A stretch of DNA of 64,000 nucleotides from a virus. Location: positions 120,112 to 184,111 of IMG/VR virus record IMGVR_UViG_3300037755_000305; one strand, 5' to 3'. The notes beneath the pieces were generated by a model. That model searched no databases, was not told the origin of the DNA, and was given only the letters and a program-made list of their open reading frames with translations. Below are positions 2,667 to 62,949 of the stretch, one piece after another (within the stretch, counting starts at the first letter, position 1; every line of letters starts with the position of its first letter). The position numbers were made by a program, and so were the translations under genes.

Positions 2667-2815
2667 TTTGAATATCCTCTTTTTAGAACTTTGGTTCTCT
2701 GGGCTCGGGATCGCTGTTTATTAGATGAGGAATCAATGGACCCACACCCGAGCCTTATTCATAGCAGGTGGATTTTGCTGCTGGTAACATATATATAACC
2801 ACTCAAAAGGATGAA

Positions 2816-36177: not shown

Positions 36178-37410
36178 TTACCCCTTCACGCACAAGACTT
36201 GTTTAAGCGTATGCTTGATTTCCACCAAAGACTCTTGAGCCTTCATCACACTGTCAATAGACTTATACGCACCAGGGGTTTCATCCAAAACTCCAATGTC
36301 TTTTCTACATTCCACGCCCTCGGTAGCAGCAATGTGGTCGTCCAGCGTAAATTGTTTCTTGGCCGCAGAACGACTCATCACTCTCCCAGCACCATGCGAA
36401 CACGAGTCGAAGCTTTCCGGGTTGCCCTTGCCCTCTACAATGAACGACTTAGCGCCCATCGAACCCGGGATGATTCCCATGACACCCTTGCGAGCGCACA
36501 CAGCTCCCTTGCGGGTCAACCACACGTTGTCTCCGTAGTGGTTCTCGCGAGTAGTGTAGTTGTGGTGACAGTTGACGGCAACATCGTGCGTCAATAGCTT
36601 CTTCTGCGGAACTCCGCCCTCACGCTTCAGCGCGTCGAAAACCTGAACCACCATGAGATCACGATTGATGCGAGCAAAGTCCTGCCCCCACTCCATAGCC
36701 TCGATGTAGTCATCGAAATACTGAGTGCCTTCCGGCAAGTACGCCAAGTCACGGTCCGGGAGGTGAATGAAATGCTTCGACATCTCTTCCTTCGCCAAAT
36801 CCGTGAAGTATCGGCCGATAATGTTACCCGGACCACGGCTTCCCGAGTGTAGCATCAGCCACACGCGATCAGCCTCGTCCAAGCAAATCTCGATGAAGTG
36901 ATTCCCGCTGCCCAGCGTACCTAGCTGCAAGGAAGCCGCCTTGTGGAAGATAGACTTGTGCTTCGCCAAAATGTTCTGGTAGCGAGCGTCCAACTTGTTG
37001 GCCCATGCTAGAGCATGCGTCTTCGGAACATCGCCCGAAGCGTATCCACCCTTGTTGTGGGAAGCCCCCTTGACAGCGCCAGTCGGAACAGCGTGCTCGA
37101 TAGCCGAACGCCAGCCCTTCAAGTTTGTCGGAAGGTCAGTGGACTCCATGCCCGTCCGTACGGCGACCATGCCGCAGCCAATATCGACCCCGACCGCAGA
37201 CGGTATAATAGCCCCTTTCGTTGGAATGACTGAGCCTACAGTGGCCCCAAAACCAAAGTGGCAATCAGGCATGACGGCGACGTGCTTGTGGATGAACGGC
37301 AGAGATGCAACATTACGCAACTGTCCCAGAGCGGCTTCTTCGACCGGAACGCCCTTCGTGAATGCCTTGATCGGCACAAGGCCACCCTGATAAACGTCAA
37401 AATCACTCAT
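36178..37410 (-). CDS. rtcB: RNA 2',3'-cyclic phosphate/5'-OH ligase RtcB
   Basis: MPDCH, VGVDIGCGM, LGTLGSGNHFIE, HSGSRG, CHHNY, IIPGSMG, SHGAGR, DETPGAYK. Confidence 0.97.
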   Translation of the reverse strand: MSDFDVYQGGLVPIKAFTKGVPVEEAALGQLRNVASLPFIHKHVAVMPDCHFGFGATVGSVIPTKGAIIPSAVGVDIGCGMVAVRTGMESTDLPTNLKGWRSAIEHAVPTGAVKGASHNKGGYASGDVPKTHALAWANKLDARYQNILAKHKSIFHKAASLQLGTLGSGNHFIEICLDEADRVWLMLHSGSRGPGNIIGRYFTDLAKEEMSKHFIHLPDRDLAYLPEGTQYFDDYIEAMEWGQDFARINRDLMVVQVFDALKREGGVPQKKLLTHDVAVNCHHNYTTRENHYGDNVWLTRKGAVCARKGVMGIIPGSMGAKSFIVEGKGNPESFDSCSHGAGRVMSRSAAKKQFTLDDHIAATEGVECRKDIGVLDETPGAYKSIDSVMKAQESLVEIKHTLKQVLCVKG

Positions 37411-38300: not shown

Positions 38301-38598
38301 CTTCGTTCTCCGCGAATCGCATAAAAATGACTCGGCTTCCATCCCAGACCTTCAGCTCCCAGCCTTCAGCTCCCAATTCGTTCAGCCTGTCTTCCAGCCT
38401 GTCGTCGGCAGACAGACTGTGGGTTGTAACTACCTTGTACTCTACAGAATCATTGATAGTTTCATCGACAGGTGTGGTGTACGTGGTCGTGGTGCGGGAC
38501 TCGAAGAAACCATCCTTGTGAATAGGCTCATCAGGAAAAATTCTATCGAATCCAAACACGTTATCGAAAAGGCTTTTAAATCTAGGGTGGGCGCTCAT
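38266..38598 (-). CDS. DUF4177-like protein
   Basis: EYKVV...LEDRLNELGAEGWEL. Confidence 0.6.
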   Translation of the reverse strand: MSAHPRFKSLFDNVFGFDRIFPDEPIHKDGFFESRTTTTYTTPVDETINDSVEYKVVTTHSLSADDRLEDRLNELGAEGWELKVWDGSRVIFMRFAENEDEEEESESERV

Positions 38599-39368
38599 AC
38601 CTCTACTCTCCAGTTAGGGTCAAAATTCTTGTTCTCATCCCCGGGCTCACCGTATCCGCACGGATTCATTCGGACTTTGGTTCCTGCAATTTCATATTCC
38701 AAGCTTTGATGCGTGTGCCCATGGAACCAATACGCGATATCGTAGGCGTGCATGATGCCGTCGAGATCCGAATAGAACCCTGGGTTGATAGCAGCCGCAG
38801 GATTCCGGTGAAACATAGGATGAACGCTCTTGAAGCTTGGAAGGTGGTGAGTCACAACAATCGTGGGCCCGTCATGCTCCTCATTCAGGGTTTCCATAAT
38901 GAATTCTACAGCTTCTTTGTGCAGAGCAACCGTATCAGAAGCGCGAAGTAGCTTACCTGCATTCTTTATGTATCCGTAGTCTGCCATGCCCTGCTCTATC
39001 AGAACCATAGATGTTGGATTCTCGTGATTGATGTTCGTCCACAGAGTGGTTCCGACAAATCGCACGTCTCCAAGAACCTTCACATCCATATCTAGAAGAG
39101 TCACTTTATCGAAATATTCCAACTCCTCGCGAACGTCGTTTGCCAGAGTCGTGATATCGTTATGATAGAACTCGTGATTGCCCATTACGTACAGGACGTG
39201 GGCGAAGCGACTGGAAACCTGTTGAAGGAAGTCACAGGCGTCAACACCGGTAGCAATGTCTCCAGCCGCCACAAGGATGGTATCACCATCCTCGGGCAGC
39301 TCAGGAACTACAGACTCCCAGTCCTTGCCGAATTCAAGGTGCATGTCCGATACGAGCCTAACCAGCAT
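38595..39368 (-). CDS. Calcineurin-like metallophosphoesterase
   Basis: SDMH, AGDI, GNHE, THHLP and HGHTH motifs. Confidence 0.9.
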   Translation of the reverse strand: MLVRLVSDMHLEFGKDWESVVPELPEDGDTILVAAGDIATGVDACDFLQQVSSRFAHVLYVMGNHEFYHNDITTLANDVREELEYFDKVTLLDMDVKVLGDVRFVGTTLWTNINHENPTSMVLIEQGMADYGYIKNAGKLLRASDTVALHKEAVEFIMETLNEEHDGPTIVVTHHLPSFKSVHPMFHRNPAAAINPGFYSDLDGIMHAYDIAYWFHGHTHQSLEYEIAGTKVRMNPCGYGEPGDENKNFDPNWRVEV

Positions 39369-39708
39369 TGACTTCTCTGCGTGCTCTCTGCGCTTGAATT
39401 GCCTGTCGGCGAGAATTGCCCTTGTCGATGGCATTCTCAACAGGCTGAACAACTTGCGACTTGATTGCGCAAGCGACGTGGTATCGGCTGACTTCAGCGA
39501 AGACGGCTACACCGACACTGTGCTCGACGTAAACCTCATCTACGTCGATGGCGAAGCCGATACTGCACTTCTCTCCGGCAGCGCAATCCCACTCCTTGCG
39601 GGAGCGGCGTCCTACAATCGTGACATCCGCTCGTGTACTGCCCTCAGCAGTCTTGGTCCTATCTGGGTGGGGCTTTACTCCCAGGATCTTCGTTACTCGC
39701 TGTCTCAT
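39358..39708 (-). CDS. Hypothetical protein
   Basis: GGAG RBS; downstream of a sigma28 promoter. Confidence 0.5.
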   Translation of the reverse strand: MRQRVTKILGVKPHPDRTKTAEGSTRADVTIVGRRSRKEWDCAAGEKCSIGFAIDVDEVYVEHSVGVAVFAEVSRYHVACAIKSQVVQPVENAIDKGNSRRQAIQAQRARREVNAG

Positions 39709-39747
39709 TGGTGGTTCTCCCGTAATTGTGAGGGCAGTATACCATAC

Positions 39748-39774
39748 CTATCGGTTCCTGCCAGGAGAACTTTA
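39748..39774 (-). promoter_or_regulatory. sigma28-type promoter
   Basis: TAAA-N15-ACCGATAG. Confidence 0.7.
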
Positions 39775-39790
39775 GAGAAAGGTGGGAGAT

Positions 39791-39860
<70 letters not shown>

Positions 39861-39878
39861 GCCAATCTCCCATCTGTG

Positions 39879-39980
39879 TGCAAGCCAGTGGTTTTCCAAT
39901 TAACCTACAGGTTTCTCAGATCGCCTGTCGCGATCCTTACGTACCCCCGCCGGGACTCGAACCCGGAGTTCTGGCATCAT
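39879..39980 (-). ncRNA. Circularly permuted tRNA-like RNA (YrlA-like topology)
   Basis: The 3' half (GCCAG, T-arm CCGGG-TTCGAGT-CCCGG) precedes the 5' half (D-arm GGTT/AACC, CTGGC-TT-GCA). Confidence 0.6.
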
Positions 39981-39982
39981 CG

Positions 39983-40070
39983 TGGCGGAAGATAGAGGAT
40001 TTGAACCTCTGTGGGTTTTACCCCGCATCGCTTTCCAAGCGAGCCCGTTTGTCCTCTCCGGCAATCTTCC
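39983..40070 (-). tRNA. tRNA-Ser(GGA)
   Basis: Cloverleaf, long variable arm, CCA. Confidence 0.93.
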
Positions 40071-40080
40071 TTAGTCCTTA

Positions 40081-40157
40081 TGGATGGGGAACTGGGATTC
40101 GAACCCAGAACCCGCAGATTCAAAGTCTGCTGCTCTAGCCAGTTGAGCTATTCCCCA
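40081..40157 (-). tRNA. tRNA-Gln(TTG)
   Basis: GCAGA-CT-TTG-AA-TCTGC; CCA. Confidence 0.92.
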
Positions 40158-40176
40158 ATATATTTACATTTCTATG

Positions 40177-40263
40177 CGGAAGAAGGAGGATTCGAACCCC
40201 CGCAGGACTCACATCCTGGCCACTGTTTTCGAAACAGGCACAATACCACTCTGTCATTCTTCC
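40177..40263 (-). tRNA. tRNA-Ser(CGA), CCA not encoded
   Basis: Cloverleaf; G73 followed by CAT. Confidence 0.9.
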
Positions 40264-40271
40264 AGGCTATA

Positions 40272-40357
40272 TGGCGGTGGGCAGAGGAATCGAACCCCTA
40301 GACGATTAAATCTACCATAGTGTTCAAAACTACTTTGCCGCCTTGGCGGTGCCCACC
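40272..40357 (-). tRNA. tRNA-Ser(TGA)
   Basis: GTAGT-TT-TGA-AC-ACTAT; long variable arm; CCA. Confidence 0.88.
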
Positions 40358-40776
40358 GATTTACCATTACGAGATTTACGTTCGTATCCTCGTGCTTTCT
40401 TAGCTGCATAGGTGCTACACACCTTACATACCCTATAGCCTCTTGCATCGTACCGAGTATTCAGCTTTGTGAATTTATGTCCGCGAACACAGTGTGTTTT
40501 ATCCTGATTTACCTTGGTTCCGGCTCCAGAATTGCACTTTAGGTGCGAAAACGCTATGTTGTCGATATCCCAAAACAATTCCGCAGAAACATGCAGCCAG
40601 GGCTCCTTATGTTCTAAGCTAAATTCTTCAATAGCTTCAATAACTTCTCCGCATTGATGGCATCTGTCAAGAGATAATTTACGCACAAGGCTAAACATAA
40701 CCAACTTGCGCAATCTGTGTTGTGCTGTGCCGAAGTTCACCCCTAATTGTTCTGACTTGAGTTTATGATTACTCAT
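40330..40776 (-). mobile_element. HNH homing endonuclease within the tRNA array
   Basis: CHQC...SLEHKEPW...NIAFSHLKCN; C-terminal THCVRGH...RVCKVC. Confidence 0.85.
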
Positions 40777-40860
40777 TTTGCTCCAAGCTATCCTTCACAG
40801 TTTTACCTGTGCCCTGGTGTTCGAAACCAGTTTGTACCCTGTACGGTACCTTCCGTATTA

Positions 40861-40951
40861 TGGCGGCGAAGGTGGGTAACGATCCCACTCGGAGGTATTA
40901 GCTCCGGCCTTGGTTTAGCAAACCAGCACAATTCCTATCTGTCACTTCGCC
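40861..40951 (-). tRNA. tRNA-Ser(GCT)
   Basis: Cloverleaf, long variable arm, CCA. Confidence 0.9.
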
Positions 40952-40958
40952 GTATGTA

Positions 40959-41046
40959 TGGTGAGCAGGGTGGGATTCGAACCCACAGTGGGATTTCTCC
41001 TGCGGATTAAAAGTCCGCCGCATTCAGCCAATTTTGCTACCTGCCC
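40959..41046 (-). tRNA. tRNA with Lys(TTT) anticodon and long variable arm
   Basis: GCGGA-CT-TTT-AA-TCCGC; 15-nt variable region; A73; CCA. Confidence 0.85.
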
Positions 41047-41051
41047 AAATA

Positions 41052-41128
41052 TGGTCCGGGTGGCCGGAGTCGAACCGGCTTCCTCATGCTCCCAAAGCAC
41101 GCGCGTGGCCACATTTCGCTACACCCGG
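41052..41128 (-). tRNA. tRNA-Pro(TGG)
   Basis: Cloverleaf, CCA. Confidence 0.92.
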
Positions 41129-41212
41129 GTAAAATCTATTTCCAACTCTCCTGAGTGATTCCGGGAGACCATTCTCCCCCATAGGTCATCAGGTATTCGC
41201 CTTATCTTCTTC

Positions 41213-41239
41213 CTTTCGGACACTCTCCCAATTTCTTTA
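41213..41239 (-). promoter_or_regulatory. sigma28-type promoter (internal to tRNA block)
   Basis: TAAA-N15-TCCGAAAG. Confidence 0.55.
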
Positions 41240-41247
41240 GTCTAAAC

Positions 41248-41515
41248 CCGCGCCAACCCAGCCCCCGCTGGCCTGTTCATCCTGTCCCTGCCAGTTAGTC
41301 GCTGGCTGCGCCCGTTCAGGATTACACAATATGGATGCCACCCTGGGACTCGAACCCAGAACCACCGGTGTCAGAGACCGGTGCTCTACCATTGAGCTAG
41401 ATGGCAATATGTTGTGCGCCGCCCGGCCCCCGCCGAGTCAGTTCTCCTGCCCCTTACCAGTCGACTACATTGTGTCTCTGGACACGCCCGTTCAGGATAA
41501 CGCAGTATGTCTTTC
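41248..41515 (-). repeat. Two related GC-rich structured elements (about 41248-41328 and 41415-41515), unassigned ncRNA
   Basis: Both share ATCCTGAACGGGCG and a GCGGGGGC hairpin, with collinear similarity between them; they flank tRNA-Gln(CTG). Confidence 0.7.
41332..41406 (-). tRNA. tRNA-Gln(CTG)
   Basis: CCGGT-CT-CTG-AC-ACCGG; CCA. Confidence 0.93.
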
Positions 41516-41561
41516 CTTTCTTCGACTGTATAAGTCTATTACTTTAGACCTATTTGCTAAA

Positions 41562-41648
41562 TGGTGAGCAGGGTGGGATTCGAACCCACATTGTCCTTTC
41601 GGACTCTGGTTAAGAGCCAGTTACATAGCCTGATTCTGTCACCTGCCC
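41562..41648 (-). tRNA. tRNA with Lys(CTT) anticodon and long variable arm
   Basis: CTGG-CT-CTT-AA-CCAG; variable stem-loop GTCC-GAAA-GGAC; A73; CCA. Confidence 0.85.
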
Positions 41649-41650
41649 AT

Positions 41651-41726
41651 TGAGTCAGTGTTCTACTCTATTGAACTACCGAAGACTAACGCTCCGGCCG
41701 GGTATCGCAGCCCGGACCTCTGACTA
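41651..41726 (-). ncRNA. Circularly permuted tRNA-like RNA
   Basis: 3' half (GTCAG, T-arm CCGGG/CCCGG, CCGGAGCG), then TTAG linker, then 5' half (TCTTCGG, D-arm GTTC/GAAC, CTGAC). Confidence 0.65.
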
Positions 41727-41731
41727 ATATA

Positions 41732-41808
41732 TGGTCGGGATAGTTGGATTCGAACCAACGGCCTCTCGCCCCCCAGACGAGCGCTCTGCCAAGCTGAGCT
41801 ATACCCCG
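41732..41808 (-). tRNA. tRNA-Pro(GGG)
   Basis: Cloverleaf, CCA. Confidence 0.93.
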
Positions 41809-41835
41809 TTATGCTTCCTTTGCAAGGTACGGGTT

Positions 41836-42243
41836 TTACGCCCGTGCTTTCTGTGCTGCGATTGCCGCCTTTCGGACAACCGGTGTTCCAAACAGATTCG
41901 TCAGCTTTCGCTTGACCGCCATCTCATTTTCGTCTCGGTTAGTATCGTATCCGCCCATATCGAACCGGAAGCTATCCGACAACAAGTAGTCTACGCTGGT
42001 TTCCTCGAGAGACCACTGTTCCTCAAACCCATTGCATGAACAGTGCGAACCATAGTTTTCGTACAGAACTCCATCCTTTCTCAACAAGAACCAGTTACTA
42101 GAGTTGCCCCAGCTACCTGCGCTTTCATAAGTGATAAGAATCTCAAACCCATCAAGCTCTTTCTCTTCGATTTGAAAAGAGCAAACAATATGGTCGCGAA
42201 CCTCTTCTTTCGAGTCTCCAGCCAAGTCTTCCAATGCCAACAT
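41836..42243 (-). CDS. Hypothetical protein
   Basis: GGAGAGG RBS; ends VRKAAIAAQKARA. Confidence 0.65.
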   Translation of the reverse strand: MLALEDLAGDSKEEVRDHIVCSFQIEEKELDGFEILITYESAGSWGNSSNWFLLRKDGVLYENYGSHCSCNGFEEQWSLEETSVDYLLSDSFRFDMGGYDTNRDENEMAVKRKLTNLFGTPVVRKAAIAAQKARA

Positions 42244-42264
42244 GTTTTACCTCTCCAAAATTTA

Positions 42265-42535
42265 CAGACGAGCTATAAGCGGGATTATGTTATCGACAAT
42301 CATTCATCTTGCTCTGGTGTCACCACCAGAATCTTTGCCCGATACCCGAGGACTCCTGACACGATCAATGCCCTCTGCTTTCGGTTGCTGCACCTGCGCT
42401 GTCGCCCGTTTCACCCAGACTTAACTGGCTCGTCACTGTTGCCGTCACTCACCTCACGGTGGTAGGGTGTTACCCTCCAGGCTGTGTCATGCAGTCCCGA
42501 CTTTCCTCTCCTTGGAGCGATTGTCCGCTCGTCTG
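42265..42535 (-). ncRNA. rnpB: Compact RNase P RNA (about 271 nt)
   Basis: P1 CAGACGAGC/GCTCGTCTG; P2 GACAATC/GATTGTC; CR-I GAGGAAAGTCGGGA pairs with CR-V ACATAATCCCGCTTAT (P4 with bulged U); CR-II/III GCAACAG...GGGTGAAACGG; CR-IV AGATGAATGA. Confidence 0.9.
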
Positions 42536-42554
42536 TTTATCCTTACAAATCAAA

Positions 42555-42631
42555 TGGTCTGGGTGGGTGGCTTCGATCCACCGACCTCTCCCTTCCGAGG
42601 GGAGTGCTCTTCCAGACTGAGCTACACCCAG
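42555..42631 (-). tRNA. tRNA-Pro(CGG)
   Basis: CTCCC-CT-CGG-AA-GGGAG; C1-G72, A73, CCA. Confidence 0.92.
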
Positions 42632-42750
42632 TTATAACTATTTGACTCTGCCGCCTGTCGCGGAGTCTCGGCTACCAGGGACAGGGAGTTCAAGTCCCTT
42701 CCTTAGCAGCTTATAACGCCCGGTGTCTGACCTATGTTTGCCTTGAATTG

Positions 42751-42833
42751 TGGCTGGCTAGGTAGGATTCGAACCTACATTGAGTTCCCTCACGGGTTAA
42801 CAGCCCGCTGCATTACCATTATGCTACTAACCA
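42751..42833 (-). tRNA. tRNA-Asn(GTT) with long variable arm
   Basis: GCGGG-CT-GTT-AA-CCCGT; variable stem-loop GAG-GGAA-CTC; G73; CCA. Confidence 0.88.
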
Positions 42834-42853
42834 ATAATTGTCCTCTAAAACGC

Positions 42854-42884
42854 AAAAACCCCGGTTTCCTTTTGGAGACCGGGG
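42854..42884 (-). terminator. Attenuator terminator ahead of tRNA block 1
   Basis: CCCCGGTCTCC-AAAA-GGAAACCGGGG-TTTTT. Confidence 0.85.
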
Positions 42885-42912
42885 CGCAAAATGTTGCTCT
42901 GTCAGTCAGAGC

Positions 42913-42999
42913 TTACAGCACGCCAGTCTCCTGCCCAGGATTACTGGGCTGGTTCGGCTTCGATTGCCGTGAGGATGGTTTGCTGTTGAAAGTCATCAT
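42913..42999 (-). CDS. Leader peptide 1 (MMTFNSKPSSRQSKPNQPSNPGQETGVL)
   Basis: 28-codon ORF ending 29 nt before the terminator; N/S/K/P/Q-rich; its 3' end is complementary to the terminator 5' arm. Confidence 0.8.
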   Translation of the reverse strand: MMTFNSKPSSRQSKPNQPSNPGQETGVL

Positions 43000-43057
43000 T
43001 GTATCCAATATATAAGCACCAGAAAAATTTCGTGATGCGCACAAGCTCTTTAGTGTA

Positions 43058-43084
43058 GTATCGGCTACCTGGACCGAAACTTGA
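43058..43084 (-). promoter_or_regulatory. sigma28-type promoter upstream of leader 1
   Basis: TCAA-N15-GCCGATAC. Confidence 0.75.
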
Positions 43085-43267
43085 GACCTTTTTATCCTTC
43101 TGAAACCAGAAACTCGAATATTTTGTAGCACTTGACGCAAATGTGCAACTTCTTTACTTCTAATCCCTCAGGGGGACAGAACAGAAGAGCGCCCGGCTCT
43201 TCCAGTTCGTCAGAACATTTAGCACAAAACACTGAAATTGCCATACCCGTCTCCAAATTTTCTATGC

Positions 43268-44024: not shown

Positions 44025-44891
44025 CTACAATTTGGTGACTACTTCAATACCTTCGCGAGTCACGATCATTGTGTGTTCAAATTGAGCGGAAAGGCTACCA
44101 TCGCATGTAGTGACTGTCCACCCGTCTCGCTCATCTGTTACCACAAACTTTTCTCCAGCATTTATCATCGGTTCGATGGTAAATGCGGTGTTCAATTGCA
44201 AAGTAGGGAATATACAATCCCCTATAGCCTTCATTCGCATATGTGGAATAGGCGGGTCCTTATGAAAGATTTTGCCAGTTCCATGTCCTGTGTATTGTTC
44301 GACTACACTAAACCCGTGCTCTTCCACAAATGGTTGGATGGCTTCGCCAACCACAGTAATGGGGGCGTTGATACTGCACGCTTCAATGCCTTTCCACATA
44401 GCTTGCTCTGTGACTTCAACAAGCCGCTTAGCGTCATCGCTAATAGTTCCTACAGCAAAGGTACGGCTGGTGTCTCCATGGTATCCACGAAGTTTAGGTG
44501 TCACGTCTACATTTACAATATCTCCCTCCATAAGAGGTCGTAGGCTTGGAATGCCGTGGCATACAACAGCATTAACAGAGATGCAACAATGTCCGGGGAA
44601 CGGAGGAGTACCGTAACCAAGGGGTGCTGATTCTGCCCCGGCTTCCTGCGTGAGTCGGTCCACCAAACCGTCGATTTCAACCGTAGTTATGCCCGGCTCA
44701 ATTACCTTTTCTACCTCATCAAGAATCTGACAAGCTAGTCTTCCGGACGCCCTCATGCCGTCCGCAAAACGCTTCTCAGCATGACGACCGAAATTTCTGT
44801 TATTGGGCTTGGTTTTCTTTCGTTTTTTCTTGCTCAAGCCGGATCTCCTTCTTCCCAACCACAGCGCGCTTTGAATGAAACGGGACCACAC
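44025..44891 (-). CDS. map: Methionine aminopeptidase (type I)
   Basis: CISVNAVVCHGIP, DIVNVDV, YHGDTSRT, GHGTG, TIEPMIN, SAQFEHT. Start uncertain. Confidence 0.95.
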   Translation of the reverse strand: MWSRFIQSALWLGRRRSGLSKKKRKKTKPNNRNFGRHAEKRFADGMRASGRLACQILDEVEKVIEPGITTVEIDGLVDRLTQEAGAESAPLGYGTPPFPGHCCISVNAVVCHGIPSLRPLMEGDIVNVDVTPKLRGYHGDTSRTFAVGTISDDAKRLVEVTEQAMWKGIEACSINAPITVVGEAIQPFVEEHGFSVVEQYTGHGTGKIFHKDPPIPHMRMKAIGDCIFPTLQLNTAFTIEPMINAGEKFVVTDERDGWTVTTCDGSLSAQFEHTMIVTREGIEVVTKL

Positions 44892-48597: not shown

Positions 48598-48640
48598 AAA
48601 AAACCCGCCAGTTTGAGCATCGTTGAGAGGCTTGGCGGGT
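48598..48640 (-). terminator. Rho-independent terminator closing tRNA block 2
   Basis: ACCCGCCA...TGGCGGGT followed by a T run. Confidence 0.65.
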
Positions 48641-55262: not shown

Positions 55263-55342
55263 TGGCACCCCCAGCAGGGATCGAACCTGCATGCGTCCAA
55301 TTACCCTTTCTACTGTTTAGAAGACAGAGGGGATATGGGGGC
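55263..55342 (-). tRNA. Non-canonical tRNA-Arg(TCT) lacking a D-arm
   Basis: Acceptor GCCCCCA/TGGGGGT; TATCCCCT linker; CTGT-CT-TCT-AA-ACAG; long 3' linker; normal T-arm; CCA. Confidence 0.7.
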
Positions 55343-58370: not shown

Positions 58371-58400
58371 TGGTGGAGACGGTCGGAATCGAACGCCCCC
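58371..58400 (-). pseudogene. 30-nt Ala acceptor microhelix (internally deleted tRNA-Ala)
   Basis: GGGGGCG-TTCGATTCCGAC-CGTCTCC-ACCA; G3:U70. Confidence 0.7.
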
Positions 58401-58422
58401 TAATATGTCCTTTCCTTCAAAG

Positions 58423-58889: not shown

Positions 58890-58965
58890 TGGTGGAGACA
58901 GAGGGAATCCAACCCTCCTCAGCCGCATTGCAAGTGCAGCTCGCCCGCTTGGAACATGTGCCCCC
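58890..58965 (-). tRNA. tRNA-Ala(TGC)
   Basis: G3:U70; TGC anticodon; CCA. Confidence 0.88.
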
Positions 58966-59059: not shown

Positions 59060-59066
59060 TCAAACT

Positions 59067-59105
59067 AAAAAGCCCTTGTACCTTCGGTCAGGTACAAGGG
59101 CTTTT
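59067..59105 (-). terminator. Attenuator terminator ahead of tRNA block 2
   Basis: AAAAGCCCTTGTACCT-GACCGA-AGGTACAAGGGC-TTTTT; the T run ends 8 nt before tRNA-Met. Confidence 0.9.
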
Positions 59106-59127
59106 GTAAAACCTCTTTGCACCCGGA

Positions 59128-59247
59128 CTACATGCGCTCTCCGCGCATTGCCCATTCTCGACCCATACCGGCTGTGGCCGGAATGGTGCCGACGCCGATA
59201 ATTCCGGTCGTGGCAAATGCTGTCGTGTTGAATGCTATGTTGTCCAT
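59128..59247 (-). CDS. Leader peptide 2 (MDNIAFNTTAFATTGIIGVGTIPATAGMGREWAMRGERM)
   Basis: 39-codon ORF ending 22 nt before the terminator hairpin; TTGCAG-N17-TATATC promoter just upstream; composition matches block 2 tRNAs. Confidence 0.75.
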   Translation of the reverse strand: MDNIAFNTTAFATTGIIGVGTIPATAGMGREWAMRGERM

Positions 59248-59336
59248 GATGTAGATATAACACCTTCGTTCGTTCGCTGCAAGCTCTTTAGTCTATTTCT
59301 CTCAGCAGTCAAAAAAAGTCGGGCAACGGGGTCTCC

Positions 59337-62728: not shown

Positions 62729-62882
62729 ATATTATAGAAGAGAGTCCCCCGGAGTCCTGAGATTGTTTAGGTTGCTCATTTCTCTGGGGTCCTCTCTATC
62801 ACCGCCTGTCGCGGTTTTTAGTCGTCTGGTACTCGATTCCAGACCTCACAGCTACGCCATGAGCGCCCCACTGGCCGACAAA

Positions 62883-62949
62883 GCCTGAACTGGGATTTGG
62901 CCCAGATTACCGGGGTAAAAGCCCGGTGTGTTAATTACACTATTCAGAA
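62883..62949 (-). pseudogene. Degenerate tRNA with TTT anticodon
   Basis: Short D-arm; CCGGG-CT-TTT-AC-CCCGG; T-loop lacks TTC; no CCA. Confidence 0.5.

Follow-up and report, generated by a model that had tools for sequence, protein, structure and literature searches.

Leaders of the trpL/hisL/leuL/pheL type combine a short open reading frame (ORF) carrying regulatory codons, mutually exclusive 1:2, 2:3, and 3:4 pairings of the RNA, and an intrinsic terminator. The antiterminator is masked when a ribosome occupies the ORF end, whereas a ribosome stalled on the regulatory codons leads to readthrough. T-box leaders, by comparison, sense tRNA directly. Here we describe a phage locus that shares the build of the first group, with the same two ribosome responses predicted, and that lies directly ahead of tRNA genes. 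Full-text literature searches returned no published account of leader-peptide attenuation of tRNA genes, and tRNA genes go unmentioned in a genome-wide survey of attenuators. To our knowledge, almost nothing is known of the control that phages exercise over their tRNA genes, and what the genes are for is debated, with codon compensation on one side and escape from tRNA-targeting defenses on the other.

The stretch of DNA analyzed here (the window, 64,000 nucleotides [nt]) is the final 64 kb of a 184,111-bp IMG/VR virus record (IMGVR_UViG_3300037755_000305, ∼69% complete) of an uncultured marine-sediment phage, and all tRNA genes of the window are carried on its minus strand. We propose that a 28-codon ORF in it, leader 1, is a trp-type ribosome-mediated transcription attenuator that gates phage tRNA genes, a reading to which we give a probability of about 0.75 from the sequence evidence set out below. 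The phage would then probably make more of the tRNAs of the gated block only when ribosomes read their codons slowly.

Relatives of the locus and anatomy of leader 1

A promoter-pattern scan of IMG/VR yielded one true relative, G001, a 266,640-bp contig collinear with the window, along with four chance matches. A peptide-level pattern scan gave no relative beyond G001, and a family-level pattern scan and a pattern scan of the GTDB genomes each gave zero matches. Further relatives were found among metagenome contigs, with others reached via an ORF of block 1 (the tRNA block behind leader 1); they originate from marine-sediment and other metagenomes. Three contigs reached through an upstream 122-amino-acid ORF (L001 to L003) carry no tRNAs and were dropped as relatives. 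INPHARED phages showed similarity to the locus at the tRNA level only, and neither the block 1 ORF nor RtcB, when used as a query, returned a close cultured relative. One relative encodes a tubulin homologue, and none was found in G000 and G001, both of which are incomplete records.

Read on the minus strand, the leader 1 locus consists, in order, of a 13-mer, a −10-like box, the 28-codon ORF, a small hairpin, a terminator, and tRNA-Asn. All of the features below lie on this strand, and read in this way every coordinate of an earlier sequence-only reading of the locus was correct. The 13-mer ACTAAAGAGCTTG (43042..43054), upstream of leader 1, is present in exactly two perfect copies in the 184-kb genome, one ahead of each leader ORF, and may be part of a promoter or a regulator site. 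It is kept in the relatives, with variable spacing to the −10 and with an intervening tRNA-like insert in L025 and L033. It is followed by a putative extended −10 region, GTGCTTATATATT (43007..43019), whose TTATAT/TATATT box occupies 43015-43007 and ends 7 to 10 nt ahead of the ATG. Within the tRNA region, the GTG(N)TTATAT motif was found before the two leaders only, and the extended −10 motif is identical in G001 and L027; promoter function and a transcription start at this site are predictions from a motif.

The leader 1 ORF (42913..42999) runs from an ATG at 42999 to a TAA at 42915-42913 and opens with two Met codons. It lacks a clear Shine-Dalgarno sequence and, since its ATG also lies just 7 to 10 nt past the −10, the mRNA may be leaderless; initiation would have to be either leaderless or via a weak GGR element. 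Two segments of the ORF matter for what follows. Segment 1 (codons 5 to 10, 42971..42986) pairs with segment 2 in the MFE folds and is the candidate anti-antiterminator. Segment 2 (the last six codons plus the stop, 42915..42931) contains, within those six codons, the putative antiterminator strand GGAGACTGGCGTGC (42931-42918), which has as its partner either segment 1 or the 5′ arm of the terminator, GCGCCCCGGTCTCC (42887-42874). Right after the stop, a GCTCTG/CAGAGC hairpin of six pairs (42896..42912; −9.0 kcal/mol) is present where the sequence-only reading had placed it (42912-42896), nested in the antiterminator helix. The intrinsic terminator (42847..42887; hairpin energy, −20.1 to −20.8 kcal/mol) continues from its 5′ arm to a 3′ arm at 42869-42859 and a U-tract with T-runs at 42858-42854 and 42850-42847. 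The tRNA-Asn gene starts at 42833, 13 nt past the U-tract, and no promoter-like site was predicted between the terminator and this gene.

Codon content of the leaders and the tRNA blocks behind them

The block that leader 1 would gate (block 1, 39794..42833, minus strand) carries 12 to 13 tRNAs, an RNase P RNA of bacterial class A (42260-42536; 147.8 bits), a conserved 135-amino-acid ORF, and an HNH endonuclease ORF. The tRNA order is Asn, Pro(CGG), Pro(GGG), Lys(CTT), Gln(CTG), Pro(TGG), Lys(TTT), and Ser(GCT), followed by a weak Ser(TGA), Ser(CGA), Gln(TTG), Ser(GGA), and a degenerate Asn-like tRNA. At ARAGORN default settings, 11 of these are called (Asn, three Pro, two Lys, two Gln, and Ser GCT, CGA, and GGA); detecting Ser(TGA) (40275-40358) and the degenerate second Asn tRNA took relaxed thresholds or Rfam. 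The list of Ser tRNAs given by the sequence-only reading accordingly stands for GCT, GGA, and CGA at default settings and for TGA at a relaxed threshold only. Just downstream of block 1 lies a gene for an RtcB-type RNA ligase (36178-37410), and a 285-amino-acid ORF at 38595-39452 shares 61% identity with its G001 homologue; syntenic ORFs in the relatives are metallophosphoesterases.

The amino acids served by block 1 dominate leader 1. Asn, Pro, Lys, Gln, and Ser account for 17 of its 27 postinitiator codons against a background of 0.258 in 127 long phage ORFs (P = 5.1e-5), and within codons 5 to 21 the proportion rises to 16 of 17. When the entire 184-kb genome was scanned in six frames, a single other 17-codon stretch, a poly-Ser run, reached 16 N/S/K/P/Q residues. 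The codons that had been listed for the leader were all found: five Ser codons (every one except TCT), four Pro codons, and both codons each for Lys, Gln, and Asn. These add up to 15 distinct synonymous codons, the highest number possible (P = 0.0015 when codons are drawn by phage usage). The block has 12 distinct anticodons, and the leader contains a Watson-Crick codon for every one of them (peptide fixed, P = 0.0024), a coverage attained by none of 20,000 random codon strings. The missing TCT is the commonest Ser codon of phage genes, so that the content of the leader is not simply codon usage. For CGG (Arg), one of the conserved core codons, the phage encodes no Watson-Crick-cognate tRNA.

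A sister unit, leader 2 (59065..59292, minus strand), carries the same 13-mer and −10 as leader 1. Its ORF (59247-59128; 39 codons) is rich in Thr, Gly, Ile, Ala, Met, Arg, and Glu and is followed by a putative post-stop antiterminator strand (59124-59117) and a terminator (59105-59068) that ends about 9 nt before tRNA-Met (59059). The tRNAs of block 2 are those for Met, Gly, Thr, Glu, Ile, Arg, and Val, with weak Ala and Trp tRNAs. The six Ala codons of leader 2 are GCA and GCC; the Ala tRNAs of the window are degenerate, and Ala(TGC) and Ala(GGC), which read these codons, are present in the G001 block. In eight leader 2 orthologues (38 to 47 codons) the frame and the aligned stop are kept, and the terminator shows compensatory changes. 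A reciprocal test of leaders 1 and 2 of the window against the two amino-acid sets gave a Fisher P value of 2.9e-6.

In relatives, a third unit, leader 0 (L021:3738 and L039:4792), stands ahead of a His/Leu/Phe/Asp/Tyr/Cys tRNA block. G000 and G001, which both end inside or just before block 0, yielded no copy of it. Leader 0 has its start region and a T-G-V/A-L end in common with leader 1, and its middle codons are those for Leu, Asp, Phe, His, Tyr, and Cys. On a 66-kb contig that carries all three leaders, the table of leaders by amino-acid sets is diagonal (13/3/6, 2/17/8, and 2/7/35; χ2 = 52.9, P = 9e-11), and the three sets together comprise all twenty amino acids. The match between leaders and blocks is robust at the level of amino acids.

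Below that level, the idea that the leader resolves individual isoacceptors held in part: Watson-Crick coverage is 12 of 12 in this genome and incomplete in relatives, where it is 8/11, 9/10, and 10/11 (conditional P values of 0.37, 0.13, and 0.06, respectively). By our reading of the missing codons, every tRNA of the relatives still has a codon that it can read under standard wobble. CCC and CCT are retained even in leaders ahead of blocks in which no Pro(GGG) tRNA was detected, and leader 2 shows no excess of synonymous diversity. Judged from these sequences, leader content does not closely track the gain and loss of tRNAs, and a design at the isoacceptor level is possible.

These same observations speak for a more general device, an attenuator that reads overall translation capacity or amino-acid supply, with the codon match as a by-product of ancestry or codon use: isoacceptor-level coverage is not conserved in relatives, codons persist in leaders although the corresponding tRNA gene is lost or degenerate, and the synonymous codons of leader 2 are no more diverse than expected. 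A general sensor, however, has no need of three amino-acid sets that barely overlap, each identical to that of its own block, nor does it account for a leader that omits the phage's top Ser codon, and we consider it unlikely.

Alternative pairings and their conservation

The pairing of the leader's 3′ end with the 5′ arm of the terminator, the central claim of the sequence-only reading, is real. Thirteen of 14 positions pair, two of them as G:U, with one C·C mismatch, and the duplex energy of −23.3 kcal/mol is lower than that of 1,000 dinucleotide shuffles (upstream RNA; −13.1 ± 2.5 kcal/mol, P = 0.002). The free 176-nt RNA folds into the hairpin between codons 5 to 10 and the last codons (the 1:2 hairpin), the small hairpin, and the terminator (−63.1 kcal/mol, z = −4.6). 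When the RNA is folded at nascent lengths, the MFE structure contains the 1:2 hairpin at 78 to 120 nt, then, at 126 to 138 nt, the antiterminator with the small hairpin inside it, and from 144 nt up the 1:2 hairpin plus the terminator. In isolation, the 1:2 hairpin and the antiterminator with its nested hairpin have the same energy (−30.9 kcal/mol each), and the terminator has −20.8 kcal/mol. On full-length RNA, a forced antiterminator state lies 3.5 kcal/mol above the MFE, and with a ribosome footprint masked the terminator stays the MFE structure at most positions. Readthrough must therefore be kinetic, and the argument for a switch rests on the series of nascent lengths. In silico, four features expected of an attenuator were found, namely, an ORF of cognate codons, an intrinsic terminator, an antiterminator that a ribosome could mask, and a 1:2 segment that sequesters it, and the competing structures are finely balanced.

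Stalling anywhere in codons 5 to 21 had been suggested to free the antiterminator. This range is too wide at its 3′ end, because the ribosome usually covers 12 to 15 nt on its 3′ side, and with the A site on codons 19 to 21 the antiterminator strand would already be partly covered; the effective range is probably nearer codons 5 to 17.

Five distinct leader 1 orthologues (those of the window, L005, L025, L027, and L033) were compared. The double ATG, the aligned stop, the small hairpin, and the terminator are kept in all five, with ORFs of 25 to 28 codons, and across the 15 leaders of all types (5 leader 1, 8 leader 2, and 2 leader 0) start and aligned stop remain in frame across indels without exception. 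A neighboring protein has diverged to 62 to 76% identity among the relatives, yet the 3′ half of leader 1 is nearly invariant; the only difference in segment 2 among the five is a C/T that falls on the mismatch. The 5′ half has accumulated changes, indels among them, yet its composition is retained and it still pairs with segment 2. The 1:2 hairpin is an element of the MFE fold in all five orthologues, and in G001, where segment 1 differs in sequence, the pairing with segment 2 is likewise retained. In the small hairpin, two pairs are altered on both sides, and the loops are variable.

Complementarity of the arms in homologues had been named beforehand as a test, and it is kept at 12 to 13 of 14 positions in the five orthologues. 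Across orthologues, 96.9% of the cells of the antiterminator helix are paired, versus 27 to 52% when it is slid. The helix contains no compensatory change among leader 1 orthologues, with 11 of its 13 pairs never varying, and in G001 and L033 a U in the terminator arm has independently become C, each time with an uncompensated A·C as the result. Against shuffles, the antiterminator stands out in L025 (P = 0.005) and L027 (P = 0.01) and weakly in G001 (0.04 to 0.13); that of L033 is no better than shuffles (0.23).

It is between paralogues that the arms co-vary. The last codons of leader 0 are a perfect complement of its own, different terminator arm, a match reached by 0 of 400 shuffles for both copies, and own-type pairings of leader 0 and leader 1 arms have energies of −16 to −23 kcal/mol, against −6.6 to −12.5 kcal/mol for cross-type pairings. 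For leader 2, the antiterminator duplex is not above shuffles (P = 0.06 to 0.76) and its orthologues show no difference between own and cross arms; its post-stop hairpin formed in 7 of 7 nascent folds.

Could the ORF instead be a free-standing small gene or small RNA, with the tRNAs transcribed from elsewhere and the pairings without regulatory role? A promoter-like motif and a terminator do enclose a unit of ∼150 nt, and the 3′ half of the leader is conserved at the nucleotide level, as an RNA gene would be. Attenuator RNAs and leader peptides that act in trans are known from other bacteria, namely, rnTrpL and peTrpL (PMC6614838, PMC7298713). Against this, the gap between terminator and tRNA measures just 13 nt behind leader 1 and about 9 nt behind leader 2, with no promoter-like site predicted in it, antiterminator complementarity co-varies between paralogues, and the diagonal match of leaders and blocks is left unexplained. 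In a test by codon position, substitutions fell evenly on all three positions, without an excess at the third and with composition kept, so that we make no claim of selection for a particular peptide sequence. We therefore think a separate small gene or RNA quite improbable.

A switch that works without ribosomes, in which the row of codons binds tRNA anticodons directly as a multispecifier T-box or a tRNA sponge, would be in keeping with the match to downstream anticodons and has the T-box as precedent. The conserved ATG-ATG, the in-frame stop, and the in-frame indels point to translation, however, the codons sit in the 1:2 hairpin and not in a specifier loop, and neither the Rfam T-box model nor any other family matched the region at relaxed threshold, all of which makes this reading very improbable. 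Mere chance, in the form of a low-complexity short ORF before a terminator and a tRNA block, is effectively refuted by the composition, anticodon-coverage, and 3 × 3 leader-block tests (P values of 5e-5 to 9e-11 over independent tests), by five orthologues, and by two more matched paralogous units, even if Ser/Pro/Gln/Asn-rich stretches are common and one other genome locus also reaches 16/17.

Proposed mechanism and comparison with known leaders

Under the preferred attenuator model, transcription would start from a promoter just upstream and give an mRNA that is probably leaderless or nearly so, and the leader 1 ORF would be translated while RNA polymerase advances. A ribosome that reaches the stop would cover segment 2, the terminator would form, and transcription would end 13 nt before tRNA-Asn. 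A ribosome stalled within the first two thirds of the ORF, on a codon for Asn, Ser, Lys, Pro, or Gln, would break the 1:2 hairpin and leave segment 2 free to capture the emerging 5′ arm of the terminator before its 3′ arm exists, so that polymerase could enter the tRNA block. Readthrough would yield the tRNAs of the block together with RNase P RNA. Because the leader codons are those read by the downstream tRNAs, such a circuit would exert negative feedback on the usable supply of these tRNAs; translation of the ORF, its coupling to transcription, and the direction and size of the response are predictions of this model. No phage RNA polymerase was detected in the incomplete records G000 and G001, which fits with the use of host polymerase and intrinsic terminators. 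In view of the tubulin homologue encoded by one relative, a nucleus-like shell around the phage DNA is conceivable and, if present, would cause transcription-translation coupling to fail; no support for such a shell in these phages was found.

A wider interpretation, which we regard as tentative and rather doubtful, is that the three attenuators form a phage-borne array that senses tRNA depletion down to single isoacceptors, with RtcB and the phosphoesterase as a repair arm. Each leader would list the codons of its own block. If a tRNA species were lost, for example to a host anticodon nuclease, ribosomes would stall on its codon and switch on exactly the block with the replacement tRNA, plus the phage RNase P RNA, and the RtcB ligase and phosphoesterase encoded downstream of block 1 would serve as the second, repairing arm.

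If the attenuator model is true, decoding speed would feed back directly on tRNA synthesis, a use of a classic mechanism for which we found no published precedent. The model offers a testable reason for the sorting of tRNA genes by amino acid in these phages, and it suggests codon-by-codon sensing of tRNA supply during infection. As compact natural parts of ∼150 nt, the leaders could also report the availability of chosen tRNAs.

Set beside the known systems, leader 1 stands in a phage and has no sequence or Rfam kinship to the known leader families: the Rfam Trp, His, Leu, Thr, and Phe leaders gave no match at the gathering threshold in 39000-64000 and none at E values up to 1 in 39500-43100. 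Where trpL, hisL, leuL, and pheL gate enzymes, leader 1 would gate tRNAs and RNase P RNA, and where a trpL-type ORF contains a run of one amino acid, leader 1 contains five, in many synonymous codons. With T-box riboswitches it would share readthrough tied to a specific tRNA state, a codon-like specifier, and a choice between terminator and antiterminator. T-box control, however, is ribosome free, uses a conserved T-box sequence and a stem I, senses the charging of one tRNA, none of which is seen here, and gates synthetase or amino-acid genes instead of tRNA genes. The nearest case of leader-peptide control of a gene of the translation apparatus is the pheST attenuator, in which Phe codons govern a host-chromosome synthetase for one amino acid rather than tRNA genes. 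Especially close in build are the thr (Thr, Ile) and ilvGMEDA (Ile, Val, Leu) leaders, which, like leader 1, are multivalent, with mixed codons; they combine two or three amino acids of one pathway, whereas the phage leaders combine five to nine each, and these are set by the tRNA genes that follow.

RNase P RNA and a repeated spacer 11-mer in the tRNA regions

The first tRNA block encodes, 3' of the leader 1 attenuator, a bacterial class A RNase P RNA (42260-42536, minus strand; 147.8 bits with the Rfam model), which at ∼277 nt is shorter than the 367-position model. A similar sequence occupies the equivalent position in the collinear relative G001, at the end of its stretch L005. The spacers of the tRNA regions also carry the 11-mer CGCGACAGGCG, of which seven exact copies were found against 0.01 expected, all on the minus strand (at 39922, 42652, 48674, 48846, 58211, 62803, and 63642) and every one in a tRNA-region spacer of the window. 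The 11-mer is present in tRNA spacers of G001 and of the relative L027 as well. It can fold into a hairpin of 4 bp and possibly serves as a processing signal. A match to the abiF RNA motif (48603-48639, minus strand; 59.8 bits, compared with a gathering score of 37 in Rfam) lies immediately 3' of the final tRNA-Met in block 2.

Unusual tRNAs and inserted elements

Six degenerate or unusual tRNA loci, all on the minus strand, score below default detection thresholds: a divergent Ala(TGC) tRNA with G3:U70 (58893-58963), an Ala-like remnant consisting of a 3' half with a CCA end (58376-58410), an Arg(TCT)-like gene carrying an insert (55266-55342), a weak Ser(TGA) tRNA (40275-40358), an Asn-like gene whose T arm is shortened (39794-39860), and a further, unassigned match to the tRNA family of Rfam (62882-62949). 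ARAGORN at a relaxed threshold additionally called a Trp(CCA) tRNA.

HNH homing-endonuclease genes are inserted within the tRNA blocks of the window (40330-40776, minus strand) and of relatives (L012:19497-19910 and L023:584-1090). In G001 and L023, such a gene sits precisely between the attenuator terminator and the first tRNA, and with the L023 copy the leader 2 -10 box and the ATGGACAA start are duplicated. In two relatives (L025:4510-4620 and L033:450-530), an inserted tRNA-like element of ∼100 nt, with a TTCGAATCC T-loop, a CCA end, and a long extra arm, separates the leader 1 13-mer from the -10 box; ARAGORN made no tRNA call for this element. The GTG-N-TTATAT box occurs a third time at 2780-2802 (minus strand), where an 11-codon ORF follows it, 5' of a 764-amino-acid ORF (372-2666).

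Protein genes and translation-related genes around the locus

Near the tRNA regions of relatives, we found a tmRNA (L037:5077-5432; tag AESYAIAA) and genes for a tubulin-family protein (L039:1263-2372) and an eIF-1A/IF1-like protein (L027:1166-1387), none of the three being found in the incomplete record of the window genome. A methionine aminopeptidase gene (44025-44891, minus strand; Peptidase_M24, E value of 2.4e-44) is located 1 kb 5' of leader 1, a synteny kept in L025. On the other side, a 285-amino-acid ORF (38595-39452, minus strand) is 61% identical to its G001 homologue, and the syntenic ORFs of relatives contain a Metallophos domain. Together with the gene for an RtcB-type RNA ligase directly 3' of block 1 (36178-37410, minus strand), it possibly forms a tRNA repair module. 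The ligase is 82% identical to its G001 homologue and ∼59% identical to the RtcB of jumbo phages.
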